DNA of 44,862 nt from Acidobacteriota bacterium (GTDB lineage: Bacteria; Acidobacteriota; Vicinamibacteria; Vicinamibacterales; UBA8438). Shown here piece after piece: positions 9,194 through 20,221 of this stretch (its first letter is position 1; the number at the start of each line of letters is the position of its first letter). The stretch covers positions 1 to 44,862 of the forward strand of contig JAPOYG010000102.1 of NCBI GenBank assembly GCA_026706755.1, in the 5' to 3' direction. Both the position numbers and the translations under genes were made by a program. Under the pieces are notes generated by a model that was not told the DNA's origin, ran no database searches, and was given only the letters and a program-made list of their open reading frames with translations.

Positions 9194-9262
9194 GAGTCCG
9201 CGCCGCAGGACGGCGCAAACGGCGGGCCCGGAGTCCGCGGCCTGCGGCGCGGGTTTCCCCGG

Positions 9263-9291
9263 TGGACGGTGGGGGCCGGAGTGTGTACACT
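9263..9291 (+). promoter_or_regulatory. Putative sigma70 promoter for the fabZ-lpxA operon
   Basis: TGGACG-17 nt-TACACT. It argues that the true start lies downstream (GTG 9328), not at 9262. Confidence 0.5.
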
Positions 9292-9327
9292 CTGCCTGCC
9301 TCGCGCGTTGCCCGGGTCAGCCGTCCA

Positions 9328-10596
9328 GTGCCGCTCGACATCCCGGTCCTCCTCGACCGCCTCTGCTACCGCTACCCGTCGCTCCTGGTCGACAGCGTGG
9401 TCGAGCATCTGCCCGGCCGCCGGATCGTGGCCGTCAAGAACGTGACGGTCAACGAAGACTACTTCCAGGGGCACTTCCCCGGCACGCCCCTGATGCCGGG
9501 CGTGATGATGATCGAGACGCTGGTGCAGGTGGCGGCCCTGCTGCTGCTCGACGAAGGGGAGGCGCCGACCCGCCGCGCCGTCCTCCGCGGCGTGAACGAC
9601 GCGAAGTTCCGCCGGCAGGTGGTGCCCGGGGACCGGCTGCGGCTGGCCGTGACGCACGAAGGCGGAAAGCCGGGGTTGGCGGTGGCGCGCGGCGTGGCCA
9701 CGGTTGCCGACCGGACGGTCGCGGAGGCGGAGCTGCTCCTGGGAATCGAGTACGACGAGCCCGACGTTCATCCGACCGCGATCGTCCACCCGGGCGCGGC
9801 CATCGGAGCGGGTACGGTCGTGGGTCCGTACGCCGTGATCGGCCCGGGGGTGCGCCTCGGGCGCGGCAACCGGGTGGGCGCCTCGGCCGTGATCGACGGC
9901 GACACCGAGATCGGGGACGGCTGTCACGTCCTCTCGTTCGCGTCGGTCGGCCAGATTCCGCAGGACCTGAAGTTCCGCGGCGAGGCGACGGGCCTCAGGA
10001 TCGGCCACCGGAACGTCTTCCGCGAGTTCGTCACCATCCATCGGGGCACGCGCGGGGGCGGAGGCGTGACGCGCATCGGCGACGACAACGTGTTCATGGC
10101 GTACGCGCACGTCGCCCACGACTGCGTCATCGGAAGCAAGACGCTGTTCGGCAACGGCGCGACGCTGGGAGGGCACGTCGTCGTCGAGGACGGCGCCACG
10201 ATCAGCGCGGGATCGGGTGTCCATCAGTTCTGCCACGTGGGCCGCCAGGCGTTCATCGGCGGCTACACCGTCGTCACGAAGGATGCGCTGCCCTACGCCC
10301 GCACCGTCGGGAACCGCGCCCGGGTCTACGGTCTGAACCGCATCGGCCTCGAACGCCGCGGCGTGCCCCCGGAGACCATCGCCAAGCTGAAGCGGGCGTT
10401 CCGGTACCTGCTGCAATCCAAGCTCAACACCAGCCAGGCGCTGGAGCAGATCGACGGCGACCCGGGGCTCGACTGCCCCGAGGTCGCCTACCTCGTCGAG
10501 TTCATCCGGGAGTCGAGGCAGGGCTCGCGGCGAGGCGTCACGTTGCGTCGGCCCCTCGGCCGGGCCGAGCCGGCGGAGAGCGAGAACCGCGTCTGA
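9328..10596 (+). CDS. lpxA: Fused 3-hydroxyacyl-ACP dehydratase (FabZ) / UDP-GlcNAc O-acyltransferase (LpxA)
   Basis: The N-terminal ~140 aa are FabZ-like ([45 protein letters not shown]). From ~9760 there are hexapeptide repeats and the LpxA motifs PQDLKF, HVAHDC and VHQFC. One continuous ORF. Confidence 0.93.
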
Positions 10597-10624: not shown

Positions 10625-11458
10625 ATGCGCTTCGGCCTGATCGCCGGCAACGGCCGCTTCCCCTTTCTGGCCCTCGAGGCCATGAAGCGCCTCGGGCACG
10701 CGGTGACCGTGGTCGCGATTCGAGAGGAGACGTCCCCCGCGCTGGCCGCCGCGGCCGCCTCGGACCCTCCGGCGGCGCTCCACTGGGTTTCCCTCGGCGA
10801 GCTGGGGAGGTGCATCGCCACGCTCAGGGAGGCGGGCGTGACGCGGGCCCTGATGGCCGGGCAGGTCCAGCACCGGCGCCTCTTCACCGGCGTGATGCCC
10901 GACCGCGTCCTGCTGGGCGTCCTGCGGCGCCTGGCGACCCGCAACACCGACGCGCTCATTTCCGGGGTCGCCGACGTGCTCCGCGAGCACGGCATCGAGC
11001 TGGTCGACTCGACCGCCTTCCTGGAGCCGCTCCTGGCGCGGCCCGGATGCCTGACCGCGCGCGAGCCGACCGACGACGAGCGCGCCGATCTCGACTTCGG
11101 CTATCGCATGGCCGACGCGGTGGCCGCGCTGGACATCGGGCAGACCGTCGCGGTGAAGGAGCGGGCCGTGGTCGCGATCGAGGCAATGGAGGGTACCGAC
11201 GCCGTGATCGCCCGCGCGGGACGGCTCGCGGGCCCCGGCGTCTCCGTGATCAAGGTGGCGAAGCCGAACCAGGACATGCGCTTCGACGTCCCCGTCGTCG
11301 GCCTGCCGACCGTGGACGCACTCCGGAGCGCGGGGGCGCGGGTGCTGTCGATCGACGCCGGCCGAACCCTGGTGCTGGACGGGGAGCGCCTGCTCGAGGC
11401 GGCCGAGGAAGCCGGAATCACCGTCGTGGGTCGCGCCTTGCAGGACGCTGCCCGGTGA
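10625..11458 (+). CDS. lpxI: UDP-2,3-diacylglucosamine diphosphatase LpxI (DUF1009)
   Basis: [42 protein letters not shown]. Confidence 0.93.
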
Positions 11459-12408
11459 CGAAGCCGTTCTGCGCCGCGGTGGTGGGGGTCGGCCACCTGG
11501 GACGGCATCACGCTCGGCTCCTGGCTCGTCTGCCGGGTGTCGAGCTGGCCGCCGTCGTCGACGTCGACGCGCGCCGCGCCGCCACCGTCGCGTCCGAGCT
11601 CGGTACCCGGGCCGCTTCCGGGATCGAGGAGCTGCCCGCCGACCTCGACGGGGTCGCGGTCGCCGTACCCACGGCGGCGCACGCCGAGGTCGCGCTGCCG
11701 CTGCTGCGGGCCGGCACGCCGGTCCTGGTGGAGAAGCCGATCGCGGCGTCGGTGGCGGAGGCGGACGCGCTGGTCGCGGCCGCGGCGAAGTCGGGCGCGA
11801 CGCTGGCCGTGGGCCACACCGAGCGCCACAACCCGGCCGTGACGACGGCCCGGGGGCTGGTGGCCGCCCCCCGTTTCATCGAGGGGCATCGCCTGGCCGG
11901 ATTCGCCCGTCGCAGCCTCGACATCGACGTGGTGTTCGATCTGATGATCCACGATCTCGACATCGTGCTTGCCATGGTCGGGTCGGAGCCGGCGTCCATC
12001 GAGGCGGTCGGCGTCCCCGTGCTCACCGAGCGCGTCGACATCGCCAACGCCCGCCTCCGGTTCGGGAACGGGTGCCTGGTGAACCTGACGGCCAGCCGCA
12101 TCAGCCGGGACCGCGTGCGCAAGCTCCGCGTCTTCGAGGCGCACTCCTATGTATCGCTGGACTACGGCGCCCAGAAGGTCGAGGCGTGGCGCGTGACAGA
12201 GGGCGGCGGGGGAGAGCGGGCCATCGAGGGGGGGAGCGTTCCCGTGACGCGTGCGGAGCCGCTCGAGCGGGAGCTGTCCGATTTCGTAGCTGCCTGCCGC
12301 GCAGGCTCGCGCCCGCGCGTGACGGGGGAGGATGGGCGCCGGGCACTGGTCGTCGCCCAGCGCGTCGCGGAGGAGATCGCCCGGGGGACGGAGGTCGGCC
12401 TGTCGTGA
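11455..12408 (+). CDS. Gfo/Idh/MocA oxidoreductase, GnnA (UDP-GlcNAc 3-dehydrogenase)-like
   Basis: GTG start overlaps the lpxI stop (GTGA). [37 protein letters not shown]. Lipid A gene context. Confidence 0.8.
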
Positions 12409-12484
12409 GCGCCCGACGCGAGCCCGCCGCGCGACGTCGCGGGCCGGGGGGCGGAGCCGGAGCGTGAGCTCGGCGGAGCGGGGA

Positions 12485-13411
12485 ATGGCAGCGGATCGAC
12501 AGGCCGGATCGACGACGGCAGAGCTCGAGGCAATCGGGGAGAGACTGCGCGCGGGCGACGGCCTCGCGTCCGGCGACGCGGCCGTGCTGGCCGCAACTCC
12601 CGACCTCGTCGCGCTGGGCGCGCTCGCGGATGAGCGGCGGCGGGCGGTGCGCGGGGACCGGGTGACGTTCGTCCGGGTGCTCGAGGTCGAAGCGGCCGCC
12701 GCCGGGGCGGGACCGGACGGCGTGCCGCCGCGCGCCGGTGAGGTGCGCATCGTCGGGCGTCCGGCGAACATCGCCGCAGCGGTGGCCGCGGCCCGGCGGC
12801 TGCGCGAGGCGGCCGGCCGCACTCCCGTCACCGGATTCGCGCTCGACGATCTCGTGGACGTATGCGGTGCCGACGCCTCCGCCGTGCGCGAGGCGCTGGC
12901 CGGGCTCCGGGAGGCAGGTCTGGAGCGCGTTGCCGAGGCCAGGGTGGACGGCGTCGCCGACCCGGCGTGGATCGAGCTCGCGGCGGCGGAGGGGCTGCCC
13001 GTCACGCGGTTGACGGTGGCGTCGGCCGACGCGGACGCTCTCGAGACGGCCGGGACGGTCGCGGCCTGGGGGGCGGCGGCGGCCAGCGTTCGCGTCTTCG
13101 CGCCGTTGCCGACGAATGCCGGTCCCCGACCGTCGACGGGCTACGATGATCTCCGCCGGGTTGCGCTCGCGCGGCTGGTGGTTGACAATATCGACTCCAT
13201 ACAGGTCGATTGGCGCTTGTATGGGCCCAAGCTGGCACAAGTGGCGCTCACTTTCGGGGCCGACGACGTGGACGCCGTCTCACCGATCGACACGCTCGAG
13301 CACGGATGGCGCCGTGCGCCTCTCGAGGAGATCGCACGCAACGTGAGCGCCGCGGCGCGGGTCCCGATCGAGCGCAACGGCCGGTTCGAGACCGGCACGG
13401 CACGACCATGA
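12485..13411 (+). CDS. MqnE/CofH-family protein lacking the radical SAM CX3CX2C motif
   Basis: N-terminus DLVALGALADERRRAVRGDRVTFV and C-terminus STGYDDLRRVALARLVVDNI..IQVDW...PKLAQVALTFGADDVD...VPIERNGRF match MqnE by recollection. Only one Cys. The stop overlaps the mqnA ATG. Confidence 0.75.
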   Translation: MAADRQAGSTTAELEAIGERLRAGDGLASGDAAVLAATPDLVALGALADERRRAVRGDRVTFVRVLEVEAAAAGAGPDGVPPRAGEVRIVGRPANIAAAVAAARRLREAAGRTPVTGFALDDLVDVCGADASAVREALAGLREAGLERVAEARVDGVADPAWIELAAAEGLPVTRLTVASADADALETAGTVAAWGAAAASVRVFAPLPTNAGPRPSTGYDDLRRVALARLVVDNIDSIQVDWRLYGPKLAQVALTFGADDVDAVSPIDTLEHGWRRAPLEEIARNVSAAARVPIERNGRFETGTARP

Positions 13412-14205
13412 GCGTGGTGCGCGTCGGCTGCGTCGAGTATCTCAACGCCCGCCCGCTCGTCCACGGGCTGGATGGGCGGCCTGATCTGTTCTCGCTGCGC
13501 TTCGACGTTCCGGCCCGCTGCGCCTCCTGGCTGCACGAACGCGAGGTCGATCTGGCCCTCATCCCCACCATCGAGTACCAGCGCCGGCCCGACTACCGGA
13601 TCGTGCCGGACCTCGCGGTGGCGTCCAACGGCCCGGTAGCTTCCGTCGCCATCTTCACCAAGCGGCCGGCAACGGCCATCCGTTCCATCGCCATCGATTC
13701 CAGCTCCCGCACGGCGGTCGCGCTGTTGCGGATTCTGTGCGCCCAGTGGTTCGACATCGAGCCGACGTTCGTGACGATGCGTCCCGACCTGCCGGCGATG
13801 CTCAAGCGTTGCGACGCCGCCCTGCTCATCGGCGACGTGGCGCTGTTCACGGAGCACGAGACCACGGACCTCGACAAGATCGACCTCGGCGAGGAGTGGA
13901 CGGCGATGACGAACCTGCCCTTCGTGTGGGCGTTCTGGGCGGGGCGCCCGGGAGCGGTCGAGCCGGTCCACGTCGCCGCGCTCCGCGCGGCGCGCGTCTC
14001 CGGGGAGGCCGCGTTCGACGAGATCGCCGCCGCGCACGGGCCGGAGGACGAGGACGAGGCGGTGCTCGCCCGCGCCTACCTCGAGGCCAACGTGCAGTTC
14101 GCGCTGACCCCGGAGTGTCTGGCGGGCCTCAAGCGGTTCTTCGGCGCGGCGCTCGATCTCAACATCGTGCAGCAGGCGACGAGCGTCCGCTTCTACGAGT
14201 CGTGA
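13408..14205 (+). CDS. mqnA: Chorismate dehydratase MqnA (futalosine pathway)
   Basis: RVGCVEYLNARPL, SSRTAVALLRIL, ALLIGDVAL, DLGEEW...TNLPFVWAFW. Confidence 0.9.
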   Translation: MSVVRVGCVEYLNARPLVHGLDGRPDLFSLRFDVPARCASWLHEREVDLALIPTIEYQRRPDYRIVPDLAVASNGPVASVAIFTKRPATAIRSIAIDSSSRTAVALLRILCAQWFDIEPTFVTMRPDLPAMLKRCDAALLIGDVALFTEHETTDLDKIDLGEEWTAMTNLPFVWAFWAGRPGAVEPVHVAALRAARVSGEAAFDEIAAAHGPEDEDEAVLARAYLEANVQFALTPECLAGLKRFFGAALDLNIVQQATSVRFYES

Positions 14206-15416
14206 TGGGCTGCGGGCTCGACGAGATCGCCACCCGCCTGCGGGGCGGGGAGCGGCTGAGGGCGGGGGAGGCGCTCGACCTGTACCGCGCCGCTCCGACC
14301 CTCGAGCTCGGGCGCCTCGCGGATGCGGCGCGCGCGGCGAAGCACCCCGAGCGCATCGTCACCTACATCATCGACCGCAACGTCAACTACACGAACGTCT
14401 GCGTCGCCCGCTGCAACTTCTGCGCCTTCTACCGGCCGGTCGGCGCCGGAGACGGCTACGTGCTCGGTTTCGACGAGATCTTCGCCAAGATCGACGAGAC
14501 CCTCGAGGTCGGAGGGGTGCAGCTCCTCCTGCAGGGCGGACACAACCCCGACCTTCCACTGGGGTGGTACGAGGACCTCTTCCGGGCCGTCAAGGAACGG
14601 TACCCGACCTTCCGGCTGCACGCCCTGTCGCCGCCCGAGGTCATCCACCTGTCGCGGCTCTCGCAGCTTCCGGTGCCCGCGGTCGTCGAGCGGCTGGTCG
14701 CGGCCGGCCTCGACAGCATTCCCGGCGGCGGGGCCGAGATCCTCGTGGACCGTGTGCGCCGCCTCCTGAACTGCCACGGCAAGGCGACGGCGGAGGAGTG
14801 GCTCGACGTGATGCGCACCGCGCACCGGGCCGGCTTGCGCACCACGGCCACGATGATGTACGGCACCGTGGAGCGGCCCGAGGAGCGGATCGAGCACCTG
14901 CTCCGGCTGCGTGACCTGCAGGACGAGACCGGCGGGTTCACGGCGTTCATCGCCTGGAGCTACCAGCCTCCGAACACCGAGCTCGGCGGGATCGAGGCGA
15001 CGGGCGTCGAGTATCTGCGCACGCTGGCCCTGGCCCGGCTGGTGCTGGACAACTTCGACAACCTGCAGGCGTCGTGGGTGACGCAGGGCGGCAGGGTGGG
15101 GCAGCTCAGCCTCGCGTTCGGCGCCAACGACATGGGCAGCGTGATGATCGAGGAGAACGTCGTCCGCGCGGCCGGCGCCGCCTACTGCATGGACGAGGTC
15201 GAGATCGTCCGCAACATCGAGAACGCCGGCTTCGTGCCCAAGCGGCGCAACATGCACTACGAGCTGCTCGGCGACCCGATCTTTCGCGAGCGTGCCGTGC
15301 CCCGGATGCTCGAGCTGGCCGTCGCCCGGGCCGGCGAGGTCGGGGCGCCGCCGCCCGAGGTCGCGCGCTATCCGGCCCGCAGCCGTGCGGAGAAGGCCCG
15401 TCGCGCAGCGCGATGA
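14205..15416 (+). CDS. mqnC: Cyclic dehypoxanthine futalosine synthase MqnC (radical SAM)
   Basis: VTYIIDRNVNYTNVCVARCNFCAF (CX3CX2C), LLQGGHNP, SIPGGGAEIL, NLQASWVTQG, GANDMGSVMIEENVV. Confidence 0.92.
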   Translation: MGCGLDEIATRLRGGERLRAGEALDLYRAAPTLELGRLADAARAAKHPERIVTYIIDRNVNYTNVCVARCNFCAFYRPVGAGDGYVLGFDEIFAKIDETLEVGGVQLLLQGGHNPDLPLGWYEDLFRAVKERYPTFRLHALSPPEVIHLSRLSQLPVPAVVERLVAAGLDSIPGGGAEILVDRVRRLLNCHGKATAEEWLDVMRTAHRAGLRTTATMMYGTVERPEERIEHLLRLRDLQDETGGFTAFIAWSYQPPNTELGGIEATGVEYLRTLALARLVLDNFDNLQASWVTQGGRVGQLSLAFGANDMGSVMIEENVVRAAGAAYCMDEVEIVRNIENAGFVPKRRNMHYELLGDPIFRERAVPRMLELAVARAGEVGAPPPEVARYPARSRAEKARRAAR

Positions 15417-16660
15417 GGCCCTCGCGACCCACCCGCTACCACGCCGCCTGGGTGCTGCCCGTCGCGACCCCGCCGATCCGCGACGGGTGGGTCGAGGTCG
15501 CCGGCGGCGTCGTGACCGACGTGGGGGCGCCCGCCTCCCTCCCGCGGGACCGCCCCGCCCGGACCGTGCACCTGCCGGGGCACGCCGTGCTGCCGGGCCT
15601 CGTCAATGCGCACACCCATCTGGAGCTCTCCGGCCTGCGGGGGACCGTTCCCCGGACGCGCTCGATGCCGGAGTGGGCTCGCGCGGTCATGGCGGGCCGG
15701 GCGCGGCCGTCGGCCGGCCGCGCGGCGGCCGTCGGCTCCGCGGTGGACGAGATGCGGGGAGCGGGCACCGCCCTGGTCGGCGACGTTGCGAACACGCACG
15801 AATCGATGGCCGCTCTCCGCGACGGCCCGGTGGCCGCGGTCGTGTTCCGGGAGGCCCTGGGCTTCGACGCGGGCGACGCCGAGGCGGCCGCGATCGGGGC
15901 CGCGCTGTCCGCGGAGCGGGCGGCCGGGGCGGGTAACCACGTGCGGGTCGCCATCGCCGCGCACGCGCCGTACTCCGTGTCGCCCGCCCTGTTCCGGGCC
16001 CTGGCCGGCGCGGCCGGCGGCGGCCCGCGGTCGGTCCACGTCGCCGAGTCGGCGGAGGAGCTCGAGCTGCTGCGGGCGGGGACCGGCGTCTGGCGCGCGA
16101 TCCTCGAGGAGCGGGGCCGCTGGGGCTCGGACTGGGTGCCTCCCCGCTCGGGGCCCGTCGCGTACCTCGATGCGCTCGGGTGGATCGGCCCGCGCACCCT
16201 GATCGTGCACGGCGTACACCTCACGCCGACCGAGATCGATCGGATCGCGGCCGCGGGGGCGACGCTCGTGGCGTGCCCGCGCAGCAACGCCTGGACCGGC
16301 GCCGGCACGCCGCCGATCGCTCGCTTCTACGCGGCGGCGGGGCGGGTGGCAGTGGGCACCGACAGTCTGGCCAGCGCCCCGGATCTCAACGTGTTCGCCG
16401 AACTCTCCCTGATGCGGCGGCTGGCGCCGTCGGTGCCGGCCTCGGCGCTCCTCGCCAGCGCGACCGCGGTGGGAGCGTCCGCGCTCGGGGCCGGCGACCG
16501 CTTCGGCGTCATCGCGCCGTCGAGGCCGGCCTCGCTGATCGCGGTCGAGTTGCGGGGCGCGACCGACGATGTGGAAGAATACCTGCTCAGTGGCATCGAG
16601 CCCGATTGCGTCACCTGGCTCGCGGACCTGGAATCCGGACCGGGCGGCCCCGAGAGGTAG
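15413..16660 (+). CDS. Amidohydrolase-family deaminase, probable aminofutalosine deaminase
   Basis: NAHTHLEL, HAPYSVS, HVAES, VHGVH and GTDS metal ligands. ATGA-coupled to mqnC. The substrate is inferred from context. Confidence 0.75.
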   Translation: MRPSRPTRYHAAWVLPVATPPIRDGWVEVAGGVVTDVGAPASLPRDRPARTVHLPGHAVLPGLVNAHTHLELSGLRGTVPRTRSMPEWARAVMAGRARPSAGRAAAVGSAVDEMRGAGTALVGDVANTHESMAALRDGPVAAVVFREALGFDAGDAEAAAIGAALSAERAAGAGNHVRVAIAAHAPYSVSPALFRALAGAAGGGPRSVHVAESAEELELLRAGTGVWRAILEERGRWGSDWVPPRSGPVAYLDALGWIGPRTLIVHGVHLTPTEIDRIAAAGATLVACPRSNAWTGAGTPPIARFYAAAGRVAVGTDSLASAPDLNVFAELSLMRRLAPSVPASALLASATAVGASALGAGDRFGVIAPSRPASLIAVELRGATDDVEEYLLSGIEPDCVTWLADLESGPGGPER

Positions 16661-16666
16661 GCAGGA

Positions 16667-17557
16667 TTGAATCGCACCGGGGGGGGCCTGGCCGGGCCGC
16701 GAGAGGTCGCCGGCCGTCTCCGCACCTACGCCTCGCTGGTGCGGCTGAGCCACACCGTCTTCGCGCTCCCGTTCGCACTGACGGGCGCGATGCTCGCTGC
16801 CGTCGAGACCCCGCTGACGGCGGCGCGGCTCGCCTGGATCGTGGCCGCGATGGCGACCGCGCGCACCGCCGCGATGGGCTTCAACCGCCTGGTCGACGCG
16901 CGATCCGACGCCCTGAACCCTCGCACCCGCAGCCGCGAGCTGCCCCGCGGCCTGGTCTCGCGGCGGGAAGCGGCGGTGCTGGTCGGAGTGTCGTCCGCGG
17001 CATTCGTGGCCGTGACGTCGCGCATCAGCGCGCTCTGCCTGGCGCTGTCCCCGGTCGCCCTCGGCATCGTCTTCTGGTACTCGCTGGCCAAGCGCTACAC
17101 GACGTGGACGCAGGTCTATCTCGGCATTGCGCTCGCGGTTGCGCCGGTCGGAGGATGGATTGCGGCCGGCGGCGGAGCCGGTTGGGAGCCGTGGCTGCTC
17201 GCGATCGGCACCGGAACCTGGGTGGCGGGGTTCGACATCCTCTATGCGTGCCAGGACGTGGAGTTCGACCGGAGCCAGGGGCTGCGATCGATTCCGGCCC
17301 GCTTCGGCGTCGCGCGGGCGCTCACCATCGCGCGCGCGTTCCACGTGCTCACCGTGGCGGCCCTGGCCTCGCTGGCGTGGGTGGTGCCGCTCGGGCCCGT
17401 CTACCTGGCCGGGGTCGCGGGTGTCGCCGCGCTGCTCGCGTACGAGCAGTCGCTCGTGCGGCCGGGCAACCTGTCGCGGGTTGGACAGGCGTTCGATCTG
17501 AACGGCTACGTGGGCGTGCTCTACTGCGTCGCGACGGCGGTGGCGATCCATGCCTGA
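16667..17557 (+). CDS. ubiA: UbiA-family prenyltransferase (MqnP type)
   Basis: HTVFALPFAL, MGFNRLVDARSDALNPRT.SRELP, YSLAKRYT, GFDILYACQD. Confidence 0.9.
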   Translation: MNRTGGGLAGPREVAGRLRTYASLVRLSHTVFALPFALTGAMLAAVETPLTAARLAWIVAAMATARTAAMGFNRLVDARSDALNPRTRSRELPRGLVSRREAAVLVGVSSAAFVAVTSRISALCLALSPVALGIVFWYSLAKRYTTWTQVYLGIALAVAPVGGWIAAGGGAGWEPWLLAIGTGTWVAGFDILYACQDVEFDRSQGLRSIPARFGVARALTIARAFHVLTVAALASLAWVVPLGPVYLAGVAGVAALLAYEQSLVRPGNLSRVGQAFDLNGYVGVLYCVATAVAIHA

Positions 17558-18191
17558 GCCGCGGCGACTCACCGTGGGCGTCACGGGGGCCAGCGGCGCC
17601 CTGTACGCCGTGCGGACGGTCGCCGCGCTCCTGGCGGAGGGCGTTGCCGTCGAGCTCGTCGTTTCGGACTTCGGGCGACGGTTGTTGCGGGACGAGCTGG
17701 GACCGGAAGCGGCGCTCGAGCGCCTGGCCGAGTACCTCGCCCGCCGCTACGGCATCGCGCCGCCCGGGCGCGGCCTCGTCGTTCACAGCAACCGGGACGT
17801 CGGTGCCTCGATCGCCAGCGGTAGCCACCCGAGCGAGGCGATGGTGATCGTCCCGTGCTCGATGAAGACGCTGGCCGGAGTCGCGCACGGACTCTCGCGC
17901 AACCTGATCGAGCGCGCCGCCGACGTCGTGCTCAAGGAGGGGCGCCGCCTCGTCCTGGTGCCGCGGGAGACGCCCATGAGCCTGCCGCAGCTTCGCAATC
18001 TCGTCCTCTGCGCGGAGGCCGGCGCGCACGTGCTGCCCGCGATGCCGGCCTTCTACCAGCGCCCGCGCACGCTCGACGACCTGGCGGACTTCCTGGCCGG
18101 CAAGATCCTCGCCGCGCTCGGCTTCGAGCAGCGCCTCTTTCCGCCGTGGAACGGCACGCCGCCGGACGACGGATCGGACGCCGGCGGATGA
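17550..18191 (+). CDS. ubiX: Flavin prenyltransferase UbiX
   Basis: VGVTGASGA, IASGS, PCSMKTL, RAADVVLKEGR.LVLVPRETP, PAMPAFYQRP. Confidence 0.93.
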   Translation: MPEPRRLTVGVTGASGALYAVRTVAALLAEGVAVELVVSDFGRRLLRDELGPEAALERLAEYLARRYGIAPPGRGLVVHSNRDVGASIASGSHPSEAMVIVPCSMKTLAGVAHGLSRNLIERAADVVLKEGRRLVLVPRETPMSLPQLRNLVLCAEAGAHVLPAMPAFYQRPRTLDDLADFLAGKILAALGFEQRLFPPWNGTPPDDGSDAGG

Positions 18192-18958
18192 CCGCCGGGC
18201 GCGGAGGGGTGGGGGAGCGGCCGGCCGGTCGGGATGCGGGGGCGGCCGCGGGGGTAGACAAGGGGCCCGCCCGCATCGCGGCGATGTTCGACGCGATCGC
18301 GCGCCGCTACGACCTGCTGAACCGGGTCCTGAGCGCGGGGCTGGACCAGCGGTGGCGAGCGCGGGCCGTTCGGTCGCTCCGGCTGACGGGGCGGGAGACG
18401 GTGGCGGACTTCTGCACCGGCACCGCCGATCTGGCCATCGCGCTGGCCGGAAGGCGCGGAGGTGCGGCGCGCGTGGTGGGGATCGACTTCGCGGGGGAGA
18501 TGCTGCGGCACGGACTGGCCAAGCTGCGGCGGTCGGGGCTGGAGCGGCGGGTCGCCCTCGTGCGCGCCGACGCGACGCAGGCGCCGCTCGCCGACGGCGC
18601 CGTCGACGCGGCGACGGTCGCCTTCGGCATCCGGAACGTCGAGCAGCCGCAGCTCGCCCTCTCCGAGATGCACCGGCTCGTCCGCCCCGGGGGCCGGATC
18701 GCGATCCTGGAGTTCGGCATGCCCCGGCTCCCGGTGGTCGGCGCCGCCTACGGCTGGTACTTCCGTCGCGTCCTGCCGCGGCTGGGGAGCGTCGTGTCGG
18801 GGCACGGCAGCGCATACGCCTATCTTCCCGCGTCGGTGGGAGCGTTCCACGGGCCGGAGGCGTTCTGCCGGCTCCTCGGGGAGGCGGGCTTCCGCGACGC
18901 CCGCGCCGTTCCGCTGCAGATGGGCATCGTGTACCTCTACGAGGCGGCCCGCGCGTAG
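18188..18958 (+). CDS. menG: Demethylmenaquinone methyltransferase (UbiE/MenG)
   Basis: ATG at 18188 overlaps the ubiX stop. MFDAIARRYDLLNRVLSAGLDQRWR, DFCTGTAD, AFGIRNV, AYAYLPASV. Confidence 0.9.
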   Translation: MTAGRGGVGERPAGRDAGAAAGVDKGPARIAAMFDAIARRYDLLNRVLSAGLDQRWRARAVRSLRLTGRETVADFCTGTADLAIALAGRRGGAARVVGIDFAGEMLRHGLAKLRRSGLERRVALVRADATQAPLADGAVDAATVAFGIRNVEQPQLALSEMHRLVRPGGRIAILEFGMPRLPVVGAAYGWYFRRVLPRLGSVVSGHGSAYAYLPASVGAFHGPEAFCRLLGEAGFRDARAVPLQMGIVYLYEAARA

Positions 18959-19057
18959 CACCGAAGCTCCGTCCGCGGCGCGGCGTCCGCCCCCGGTGCC
19001 GCGAGCCCACGGCTCCGCGGCGTCGCGTGCCCCGCGGCAGGAAACACGCGGCGACGC

Positions 19058-19066
19058 TGCTATACT
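19058..19066 (+). promoter_or_regulatory. Extended -10 promoter upstream of the TonB-family gene
   Basis: TGCTATACT (TGnTATACT), 33 nt before the ATG. Confidence 0.55.
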
Positions 19067-19099
19067 GGCGGGGGATCCCGTAGTCCGACCCGACGTTCC

Positions 19100-20221
19100 A
19101 TGCTGTTCGACTTCGAGGACCGCTGTTTCGACACGCCGACCGTCGATTCGGCGATGTCGTGGCGCGAGCAGATCCTGCTGTCGGGGTTGATTCACCTGCT
19201 CGTCGTGCTGGCCGTCCTGTTCGTGCCGGAACTCTCGTTCGTGCGGGATGCGGAGGCGCGGCGCGCGGAGCGCCTGGCCCAGCAGGCCGAACTGCTCGCG
19301 CAGGCGCAGCCCGCGGCTCCCGACACGGGCCGGCCCTTCATCTTCGTCCAGCCGCGCGTCGATCTCGAGGCCCCGGACGCCCGGCCGGACGCCCCGCTGT
19401 CCGATCAGGACCGGCGGGCCCAGTCCCCGTTCGCGTCCCTGGATCCCCGCAACCGCCTGCCGAACGCTCGTGGCAACTCGATGGAGTTCGTCGAGGCGGA
19501 GGATCCGAGCCTGGTGCTCGACGACGGTCCGCGCATCGGAGTCCCGGCCGACGCCAGCTCGCCGGACCCGGCGGACGTCCCCGAGCCCGATCCCCGGGTA
19601 GACGATCTGCTCGCGGCCGCGGCGGACGTGCCCCCCTCCCAGAGTCCCGAGGAACAGGACGAGCAGGCACCGGACGCGGAGCCCGCGGAGGAGGCGGACC
19701 CGAGCGTCGAGGAGCTGCTGGCGGAGGGTGCGCTCACCGTTCCGCGGCCGAGCGGCCGCCGCCGGGACCCGGACCCGCCCGATCGCCGCGCGGACCTCTT
19801 CGCGGACGGCCTGCTCGGGGGCAACCTGGGCGACCTGGGCCGCTACGTGCGGCGCGAGAGCTTCGGCAACGTCTACGGCGATACCGGCAATTTCGCGCCC
19901 TGGATTCAGTTCGACACCAAGGGAGTCGAGTTCGGCCCGTGGCTGCGGCGCTTCATCGCGCAGATCCGCCGCAACTGGTTCATCCCCTACGCCGCGCTGA
20001 GCATGCACGGGAACGTCCAGCTCACGTTCTACGTGCACCGGGACGGCACGATGACGGGGCTCACCGTCCGCCGGCCGTCGGCGGTGGATGCGTTCACGAA
20101 CTCGGCCTTCAACGCGCTGAAGTCCTCCAACCCGACCCGGCCGCTCCCGGCGGAGTACCCGGACGACCAGGCCTTCTTCACGGTCACCTTCTACTTCAAC
20201 GAGTCGCCGCCGCGGGCCTGA
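19100..20221 (+). CDS. TonB/TolA-family energy transducer
   Basis: N-terminal TM helix with SxxxH (LSGLIH), an acidic Pro-rich linker, and a TonB_C-like C-terminus (WLRRFIAQIRRNW, LTFYVHRDG, RPLPAEYP, FTVTFYFN). Confidence 0.8.
   Translation: MLFDFEDRCFDTPTVDSAMSWREQILLSGLIHLLVVLAVLFVPELSFVRDAEARRAERLAQQAELLAQAQPAAPDTGRPFIFVQPRVDLEAPDARPDAPLSDQDRRAQSPFASLDPRNRLPNARGNSMEFVEAEDPSLVLDDGPRIGVPADASSPDPADVPEPDPRVDDLLAAAADVPPSQSPEEQDEQAPDAEPAEEADPSVEELLAEGALTVPRPSGRRRDPDPPDRRADLFADGLLGGNLGDLGRYVRRESFGNVYGDTGNFAPWIQFDTKGVEFGPWLRRFIAQIRRNWFIPYAALSMHGNVQLTFYVHRDGTMTGLTVRRPSAVDAFTNSAFNALKSSNPTRPLPAEYPDDQAFFTVTFYFNESPPRA

Follow-up and report, generated by a model that had tools for sequence, protein, structure and literature searches.

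The gene before mqnA and its product

The window analysed here is the whole 44,862-nucleotide (nt) contig JAPOYG010000102.1 of an Acidobacteriota bacterium (GenBank assembly GCA_026706755.1), read on its forward strand. At positions 12485–13411 (+) it contains a gene encoding a protein that we label X, followed by the futalosine pathway genes mqnA and mqnC (Table 1). X is a putative pseudoenzyme paralog of a radical S-adenosylmethionine (SAM) enzyme, previously unannotated in the sources searched. In databases the members of its family are named 'hypothetical protein', 'CofH/MqnC C-terminal region domain-containing protein' and once, wrongly, 'aminodeoxyfutalosine synthase', and the ESM Atlas yielded only unnamed or CofH_C clusters.

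Translation of the open reading frame (ORF) gave 308 codons with zero internal stops. A sequence-only reading of the locus had described an intact ORF of 308 amino acids (aa) coupled to mqnA by an ATGA overlap, with a product that has a single Cys and lacks both the CX3CX2C motif and the PGGGAE segment; all of this was borne out by direct reading of the sequence and by alignments. The sole Cys is C127. In the alignment, NYTNVCVARCNFCAF of MqnC corresponds to VLEVEAAAAGAGPDGVPP of X (residues 65–82, about 12677–12730), and PGGGAE is shrunk to AEA in comparison with both MqnC and MqnE.

Among Pfam models, X matched CofH_C alone (PF19288; 28.5 bits against a gathering cut-off of 27, residues 219–264), with no Radical_SAM (PF04055) match at E<=1, whereas the neighbouring MqnC matched both domains. 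The NCBIfam model of MqnE, TIGR03700, gave 66.2 bits (cut-off 434.55) in two partial stretches, that of MqnC, TIGR03699, gave 57.4 bits (cut-off 428.1), and the CofH models matched weakly.

To define which motifs are kept, consensus sequences of 69 X, 22 MqnE and 13 MqnC proteins were compared. X keeps the N-terminal LG.lA..R..hG helix (LGxLA in common with MqnE), the T on strand beta-1, the E on beta-2, aGl before beta-4, and TG..D...A.aRL..DN, W, AQ and FGaDD.D; the PL on beta-6 is common to X and MqnE and is not found in MqnC, and the same holds for P301 (MqnE numbering). Missing from the X consensus are the cluster loop, the GL/GG after beta-2, the PGGG of PGGGAE, YGHIE and TVxEExIxHxAGA; X has VGRP for V.GLhP, AEA for PGGGAE and TV for TmLYGHiE, and is about 60 residues shorter than MqnE. 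The Gly-rich motif after beta-2, the ribose motif PGGGAE and the beta-5 motif of the GxIxGxxE type are SAM-binding motifs. With these elements lost, canonical SAM and cluster binding are gone from X. Judging from these missing cluster and SAM motifs, it is very unlikely that X catalyses the aminofutalosine synthase reaction, the addition of the adenosyl radical to 3-enolpyruvyl-benzoate. X should be filed neither in the radical SAM superfamily nor as MqnE, since it lacks the features by which both are defined. Its homology to enzymes with the cofactor residues lost, together with purifying selection across lineages (see below), is as expected of a pseudoenzyme.

The fold of X is nevertheless predicted to be that of its enzymatic relatives. 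An AlphaFold2 model built on the alignment of 69 sequences (predicted local distance difference test, pLDDT, 94.6; predicted template modelling score, pTM, 0.92) has eight barrel strands, and the lowest-pLDDT block inside it (residues 71–80, 75) lies in the loop that replaces the cluster loop. The best Foldseek matches in the PDB were 6xig and 6xi9, both MqnE of Pedobacter heparinus (E 3.5e-15, TMq 0.77); BioB, PylB, HydE, HydG and ThiH followed lower, and a profile search against PDB sequences returned MqnE only (E 2.6e-16). Thus, the modelled X has the (beta/alpha)8 radical-SAM-type barrel of the BioB/HydE/MqnE class. The whole-length alignment with MqnE that had been drawn by eye is supported at the level of the fold but not at that of the sequence profile, where only about residues 5–64 and 153–258 match MqnE.

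Table 1. Coordinates of gene X, its features and the genes downstream (window positions, except in the last row)
Feature	Position	Strand	Basis
X, cluster-less MqnE paralog, CofH_C domain only	12485..13411	+	308 aa
Shine-Dalgarno-like GGAG, 6 nt 5' of the X ATG	12475..12478	+	direct sequence reading
N-terminal helix, X residues 39–50, predicted MqnE contact	12599..12634	+	interface list
Ala/Gly/Pro-rich loop, X residues 65–84, in place of the CX3CX2C cluster-binding loop after strand beta-1	12677..12736	+	alignments with MqnC, MqnE
TGYDDL, X residues 218–223, predicted contact; T218 and G219 invariant	13136..13153	+	model and conservation
PKLAQVALT, X residues 248–256, predicted contact helix with ancestral MqnE-like P and K kept	13226..13252	+	model and conservation
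X residues 276–291, predicted contact, with X-specific nearly invariant R276 and R277	13310..13357	+	model and conservation
ATGA overlap of X stop TGA (13409–13411) and mqnA start ATG (13408–13410)	13408..13411	+	direct sequence reading
mqnA, chorismate dehydratase family, PF02621	13408..14205	+	179 bits
mqnC, true radical SAM enzyme	14205..15416	+	TIGR03699 478.8 bits, above cut-off
Amidohydrolase resembling the aminofutalosine deaminase family (approximate start)	15410..16660	+	NF006269 122.8 bits, below cut-off 320
UbiA/MqnP-like prenyltransferase	16667..17557	+	–
UbiX-family flavin prenyltransferase	17550..18191	+	–
mqnD–mqnE linkage loci (L001, L120, L130, L135, L138)	1030..1857 of L001	-	1.5-kb flanks

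Distribution, gene order and origin of the X family

The loss of the cofactor motifs is a trait of the whole X family and not the decay of one copy. Of 8000 proteins scored in a word-indexed search, 4671 reached E<=1e-3; the top 120 homologs are 175–334 aa long, match PF19288 alone and range in identity from 100% down to about 51%. When 1.84 billion cluster representatives were searched exhaustively, 114 matched at E<=1e-30. The CX3CX2C motif was found in none of 268 fetched X homologs, and among the 199 full-length ones 29 lack Cys altogether, so a Cys-ligated cluster cannot be a family trait.

In a sample of 301 Acidobacteriota genomes the family was found only in the order of the host, Vicinamibacterales (order membership was taken from record titles). 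Of 41 order genomes compared, 39 contain full-length X. One of the other two (G031) has no X and also no MqnA or MqnE-level matches, and in the second (G039), with an MqnC-level match only, mqnC begins 211 nt from a contig end. A family profile run against 301 genomes of the phylum matched all 25 order genomes among them at 262–398 bits; in the 276 from outside the order the X family was absent at this level, the best match, of 112 bits, being partial, and the frames matched there, of about 370–400 aa, are true MqnE or MqnC. It should be mentioned that the phylum tallies of the X profile and of MqnB (given below) include two unpublished genomes (G063 and G086), and that of the X profile a third one (G187); no single claim rests on them. 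At least 512 X loci were detected in species-representative genomes, nearly all titled Vicinamibacterales, Vicinamibacteria or Acidobacteria. According to record titles and run labels, carriers come from soil, groundwater, marine and sponge samples, so that the X family touches quinone biosynthesis in many environmental genomes.

The position of X is strictly conserved. In all of the 80 loci kept for gene-order counts X is followed by mqnA, at a gap of no more than 30 nt in 64 of them, and a full-strength MqnC match comes after mqnA in 77; the remaining three loci are short or truncated. An exceptional arrangement was observed in one genome (G028:C85:13777-15754), in which mqnC directly follows X about 60 nt away, with no room for mqnA between them.

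Pairwise ratios of nonsynonymous to synonymous substitution rates (dN/dS; NG86 method, 14 pairs) were 0.16–0.38 for X in 13 pairs and 0.76 in one nearly identical pair with very few changes. The ratios were 0.10–0.28 for MqnA, with 0.44 in that same pair, and 0.04–0.14 for MqnC. X is clearly under purifying selection, though it evolves faster than MqnA and MqnC, and 45 columns of its family alignment are at least 90% conserved. An in-frame stop was flagged in three of 39 X matches (G040, G021 and G025); that of G040 lies in an overhang upstream of an intact 300-aa ORF, and in G025 no stop appeared in the profile search. The sequence-only reading had proposed a selective loss of the cofactor motifs with the protein maintained, and had asked for orthologs to be compared in motif content, mqnA adjacency and dN/dS. 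The universal motif loss, the mqnA adjacency in 80 of 80 loci, dN/dS well below 1 and the MqnE-like fold agree with that proposal, while the non-catalytic role that it suggested is still a prediction. The three observations named as contradicting it were all looked for and none was found: neither an intact motif in close relatives, nor neutral evolution, nor an unrelated fold.

Gene order and phylogeny suggest where X came from. In two genomes of the same class outside the order, which form a sister family, mqnA and mqnC are immediately preceded by a gene for a true MqnE (368 aa, both CX3CX2C and PGGGAE present); X therefore occupies the position of mqnE. In direct comparisons with X, MqnEs from outside the order scored 65–79 bits, the order's own MqnE 45–57 and MqnC 47–54. 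In the maximum likelihood tree (56 rows) X forms one clade (100/100) on a long stem of about 2.9 changes per column and groups with MqnE (ultrafast bootstrap, UFBoot, 99; Shimodaira–Hasegawa-like approximate likelihood ratio test, SH-aLRT, 82); the X sequences in it are long-branched and unusual in composition. Derivation of X from mqnE is thus the better-supported reading of these comparisons, though not a proven one. In such a scenario the mqnE gene standing before mqnA and mqnC in the ancestor of the order would have lost the 4Fe-4S loop, the Gly-rich SAM and ribose motifs, the YGHIE strand motif and the TVxEExIxHxAGA segment, and the chemistry would be left to a second mqnE, complete in its motifs, at another locus.

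Active MqnE and the predicted X–MqnE pair

Such a second gene does exist. The genome of the window encodes on another contig (C84) a true MqnE that scores 445.3 bits, though cut by the contig end, and contains NVCVASCLFCAF and PGGGAE. The sequence alone had raised the question whether an active MqnE might be lacking from the genome; this is not so, and no unknown route to aminofutalosine is needed. MqnE exceeded the curated cut-off in 38 of 41 genomes of the order; of the rest, G036 has it as a contig-end fragment and G031 lacks the pathway. In its row for Acidobacteria, a published table gives MqnA, MqnC and MqnD in 5 of 5 (PMC3914697).

A three-chain complex was modelled from MqnA, MqnE (the first alignment row, from the same-genus genome G002) and X as the scored partner. 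The interface score (interaction prediction score from aligned errors, ipSAE) of X was 0.72, 0.73 and 0.70, against 0.00 for the best of three controls; the runs agree in at least 84% of contacts, with a partner pLDDT of at least 84. In the calibration, 58 of 80 solved complexes and two of 110 mismatched pairs attained the ipSAE mark; these counts hold only roughly here, as our own alignments and the three chains differ from the conditions used there. The scored contact of X is MqnE, because the control in which MqnE was replaced and MqnA kept fell to 0.00. The model thus supports binding of X to MqnE, and the earlier suggestion that X could be the partner of a distant MqnE has gained in weight (0.72 against 0.00), with the binding itself still a prediction. 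The same control, with MqnA and X and a replaced MqnE, gave no support to a binding of X to MqnA, and is not evidence against it.

The predicted interface includes residues 35–45, 266–276, 300–310 and 344–349 of MqnE and residues 39–50, 218–223, 248–256 and 276–291 of X. Equivalent elements of both proteins are used, so that the predicted assembly is a pseudo-two-fold dimer. Of the 29 X residues in the predicted interface, 14 are conserved to at least 90%, whereas in the rest of the protein this holds for 31 of 279 (Fisher p 4.5e-6); the enrichment is not fully independent of the model, which saw the same alignment. Eight of the 14 X-specific conserved residues, i.e., those conserved in X and shared with neither MqnE nor MqnC, belong to this interface (Y220, D222, P248, L250, V253, R276, R277 and A289; p 4.8e-6); the others (R64, V65, R88, D242, A254 and G274) lie outside it, mostly on barrel strands.

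Comparison of homologous interface positions revealed that X retains the states of MqnEs from outside the order, while the order's own MqnE has changed. This includes MqnE position 302, where X has K (66 of 69), outside MqnEs have K/R (12 of 13) and the order's MqnE has E/D (18 of 20); K is found at the equivalent position of MqnC too. Similarly, X and outside MqnEs share G at position 272 (A in the order's MqnE) and P at 301 (V in the order's MqnE). At 273 X has Y, outside MqnEs F/L/Y and the order's MqnE S/A; at 303 these are L, I/L and V, and at 306 V, V/I and T, respectively. W42 and W309 occur throughout the order's MqnE, whereas MqnEs from outside vary at these positions. The interface region is variable among MqnEs, since the P. 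heparinus enzyme differs again at those positions.

On these grounds we propose that X is a non-catalytic partner subunit of MqnE, a silent former MqnE; we regard this as a tentative reading, with slightly less than an even chance of being right. In the model X keeps the whole (beta/alpha)8 barrel, together with an almost invariant surface to which the N-terminal helix, the TGY(D)D loop, the GPKLAQV helix and the X-specific RR pair contribute. This surface would pack on the equivalent surface of active MqnE in a pseudo-two-fold heterodimer, where X would stabilise or tune the enzyme, and its barrel may still hold a carboxylated pathway intermediate. A stricter version, possible but rather doubtful, is that the aminofutalosine synthase of the order is obligately heterodimeric, with a catalytic MqnE as one subunit and a former MqnE without cluster as the other, produced by duplication of a homodimeric enzyme and a subsequent asymmetric change of the shared interface. 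In that case X would keep the ancestral GPKLAQV/TGY surface, MqnE would have reversed the charge at 302 and gained W42 and W309, and the dead subunit may retain a pocket for the MqnA product or aminofutalosine.

Several points, besides the limits given above, weigh against the proposed pairing. The MqnE crystals 6xi9 and 6xig hold two chains each, and if these form the same dimer, the pass in the complex test may reflect a memory of the MqnE homodimer rather than binding by X; close cousins of a true partner can pass the test too, so MqnC comes into question as well. Of the 14 conserved residues at the interface, six are not peculiar to X but conserved in true MqnE or MqnC as well. On the MqnE side, fixed changes specific to the order are no more frequent in the interface than elsewhere (3 of 32 against 31 of 334, p 0.59), and a softer divergence score gave p 0.13 for MqnE and p 0.07 for MqnC, the latter with only five outside MqnC sequences. 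R64, R88 and D242, which belong to barrel strands and not to the interface, may indicate a site for ligand binding or catalysis, i.e., another function. The approximately unbiased (AU) test does not reject a grouping of X with MqnC (p 0.143). Finally, mqnE lies outside the X operon, at other loci, and in one genome with X and MqnC (G028; 150 contigs, completeness 100% by markers) no MqnE is detectable in the assembly.

Among other explanations, X could be a stand-alone ligand binder or a new cofactor-independent enzyme of the futalosine pathway, its barrel holding 3-enolpyruvyl-benzoate, aminofutalosine or futalosine; as such it might be a carrier, a sensor, or a hydrolase covering the often-missing MqnB step. 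The X-specific, nearly invariant and charged R64, R88 and D242, which to judge by conservation may leave X an activity of its own, are accompanied on this side by the kept E86, Q240, D261 and D263 and by a whole barrel modelled at high confidence. The own genome (G000) has no MqnB/MTAN match (TIGR03664, E<=0.01), and MqnB exceeds its cut-off in only 14 of 41 order genomes (17 of 301 genomes of the phylum, none of 20 in family f38 and none of the two sister-family genomes). However, MqnB is equally patchy in Acidobacteriota without X, the 14 genomes with MqnB also carry X, no hydrolase-like motif or fold match was found for X, whose strong fold matches are all radical SAM enzymes, and most of the X-specific conserved residues (8 of 14) fall in the predicted interface and not in the barrel. 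We consider an independent role of this kind unlikely. A silent partnership with MqnC, encoded two genes downstream in the same overlapping operon, appears more improbable still. X, mqnA and mqnC are translationally overlapped (ATGA, TGATG) in a gene order kept across the 80 loci, G028 has X and then mqnC directly with no MqnE found, MqnC has the same fold and a homologous interface helix, in which K occupies the position equivalent to MqnE 302, and both the AU test and the tolerance of the complex test for cousins leave room for this protein. The tree, the position in the sister family and the shared residues nevertheless place X nearer to MqnE, and the adjacency of X and mqnC is not specific evidence, because it is inherited from the ancestral mqnE–mqnA–mqnC order.

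Virtually no weight can be given to X being a decaying remnant, a recent functionless mqnE pseudogene. All catalytic motifs are indeed lost, and X evolves faster than its neighbours, both in its stem of about 2.9 changes per column and in a dN/dS above those of MqnA and MqnC. The frame is, however, intact in the window, the flagged stop that was checked (G040) lies upstream of an intact ORF, the family spans the order at identities down to about 36–45%, and dN/dS of 0.16–0.38, the 45 highly conserved columns and the confident fold all speak of a maintained protein.

With MqnB so patchy, the nucleosidase step of the futalosine pathway is without an assigned enzyme in most of these genomes. X was considered as the replacement for MqnB and no link was found, as MqnB is present in 14 X-bearing genomes and missing in lineages without X. 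The only PNP_UDP_1 protein of the own genome is MTAP-like (G000 contig C3, L104 42-935).

Related systems and surroundings of the operon

X differs from the known systems to which it can be compared. It shares with MqnE the barrel and the place before mqnA, and differs from it, apart from the lost motifs, in the conserved R64, R88, D242, Y220, R276 and R277. MqnC belongs to the same superfamily and operon and has the same C-terminal CofH_C domain; unlike X, it is a complete radical SAM enzyme (478.8 bits against 57.4 for X with the same model), and X groups with MqnE, although the AU test leaves MqnC open. In the two-subunit FO synthase CofG/CofH, two related radical SAM barrels cooperate in one pathway step; both subunits have clusters and are catalytic, whereas X has no cluster. 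Pseudoenzyme partners of active paralogs, e.g., inactive methyltransferase subunits, form a general class, and X resembles them as a dead paralog kept by selection that is predicted to bind an active paralog through the homologous dimer surface. In the searched literature, which left most subscription journals outside its scope, we found no described pseudoenzyme partner for a radical SAM enzyme of the MqnE/CofH subfamily, nor did we find papers that deal with cluster-less paralogs of MqnE/MqnC or with MqnE's oligomeric state.

A second cluster-less family related to CofH was noticed in Acidobacteriota family f45 (L098 2971-3876 in G289; L099 and L100 in G319 and G251). Its proteins are about 301–318 aa long, lack CX3CX2C and are about 35% identical to MqnC over 336 aa; each of the five f45 genomes checked has two full-size paralogs and a third, short cluster-less one. 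Unlike X, they branch inside the MqnC clade (UFBoot 100 / SH-aLRT 97) and are not next to mqnA, and the L098 copy is not beside mqn genes. The f45 family is of an origin independent of X, which suggests that cluster-less radical SAM paralogs recur in Acidobacteriota; if the aminofutalosine synthase of Vicinamibacterales were an obligate heterodimer, the f45 family would mean that a half-dead radical SAM dimer arose more than once.

Radical SAM enzymes are defined by the cluster and the SAM site, and an order-wide conserved barrel family with neither is unusual. Should X be a silent MqnE subunit, radical SAM biochemistry would gain a clear case of a pseudoenzyme partner and a natural example of the transition from homodimer to heterodimer. 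X would then also be a warning for pathway reconstruction, since pipelines could count X as MqnE or miss the need of MqnE for X. If X has a new activity instead, a radical SAM barrel would have been reused without radical chemistry.

Downstream of X, the stop codon of mqnA and the ATG of mqnC overlap as TGATG at 14203–14207, and the mqnC product matches Radical_SAM at 76.1 bits and CofH_C at 115.7 bits (Pfam). Lipid A genes lie upstream on the same strand. Among them, one 444-aa frame at 9262–10596 (+) contains FabZ (residues 30–159) and LpxA (residues 167–423), both above their cut-offs, and thus appears to be a FabZ–LpxA fusion; it is followed by an LpxI-like gene and, just upstream of X, a gene for a Gfo/Idh/MocA oxidoreductase. 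A scan of 11400–19200 for promoters and terminators gave zero promoter-like sites and two terminator-like sites, no more than in shuffled sequences.

Contigs from RNA libraries of two studies, 90–96% alike, cover parts of X (12304–12724, 12785–12943 and from 13205 onward), and no such contig covers about 12944–13179. One from a sponge-metagenome RNA library, about 91% alike, spans the start of X (12304–12724), and the X/mqnA junction is bridged by three metatranscriptome contigs of 801–1055 nt from one marine study (95–96% alike; window 13205–14263). These contigs stem from relatives and may include DNA carry-over, so they are at most a weak hint that relatives transcribe the X operon. The small word shares (0.08–0.11) are uninformative on habitat.

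Two further gene neighbourhoods should be mentioned. In the genus of the window and in one other genome, mqnD immediately precedes the true mqnE (4 of the 30 loci that had flanks of 1.5 kb); as a general feature this linkage was rejected, being absent in the other 26 loci. In G040 (L053 4540-5988) a 482-aa ORF, UbiD-family decarboxylase-like by eye only, lies directly upstream of X, and X is located there inside a longer row of menaquinone genes and not at its head.

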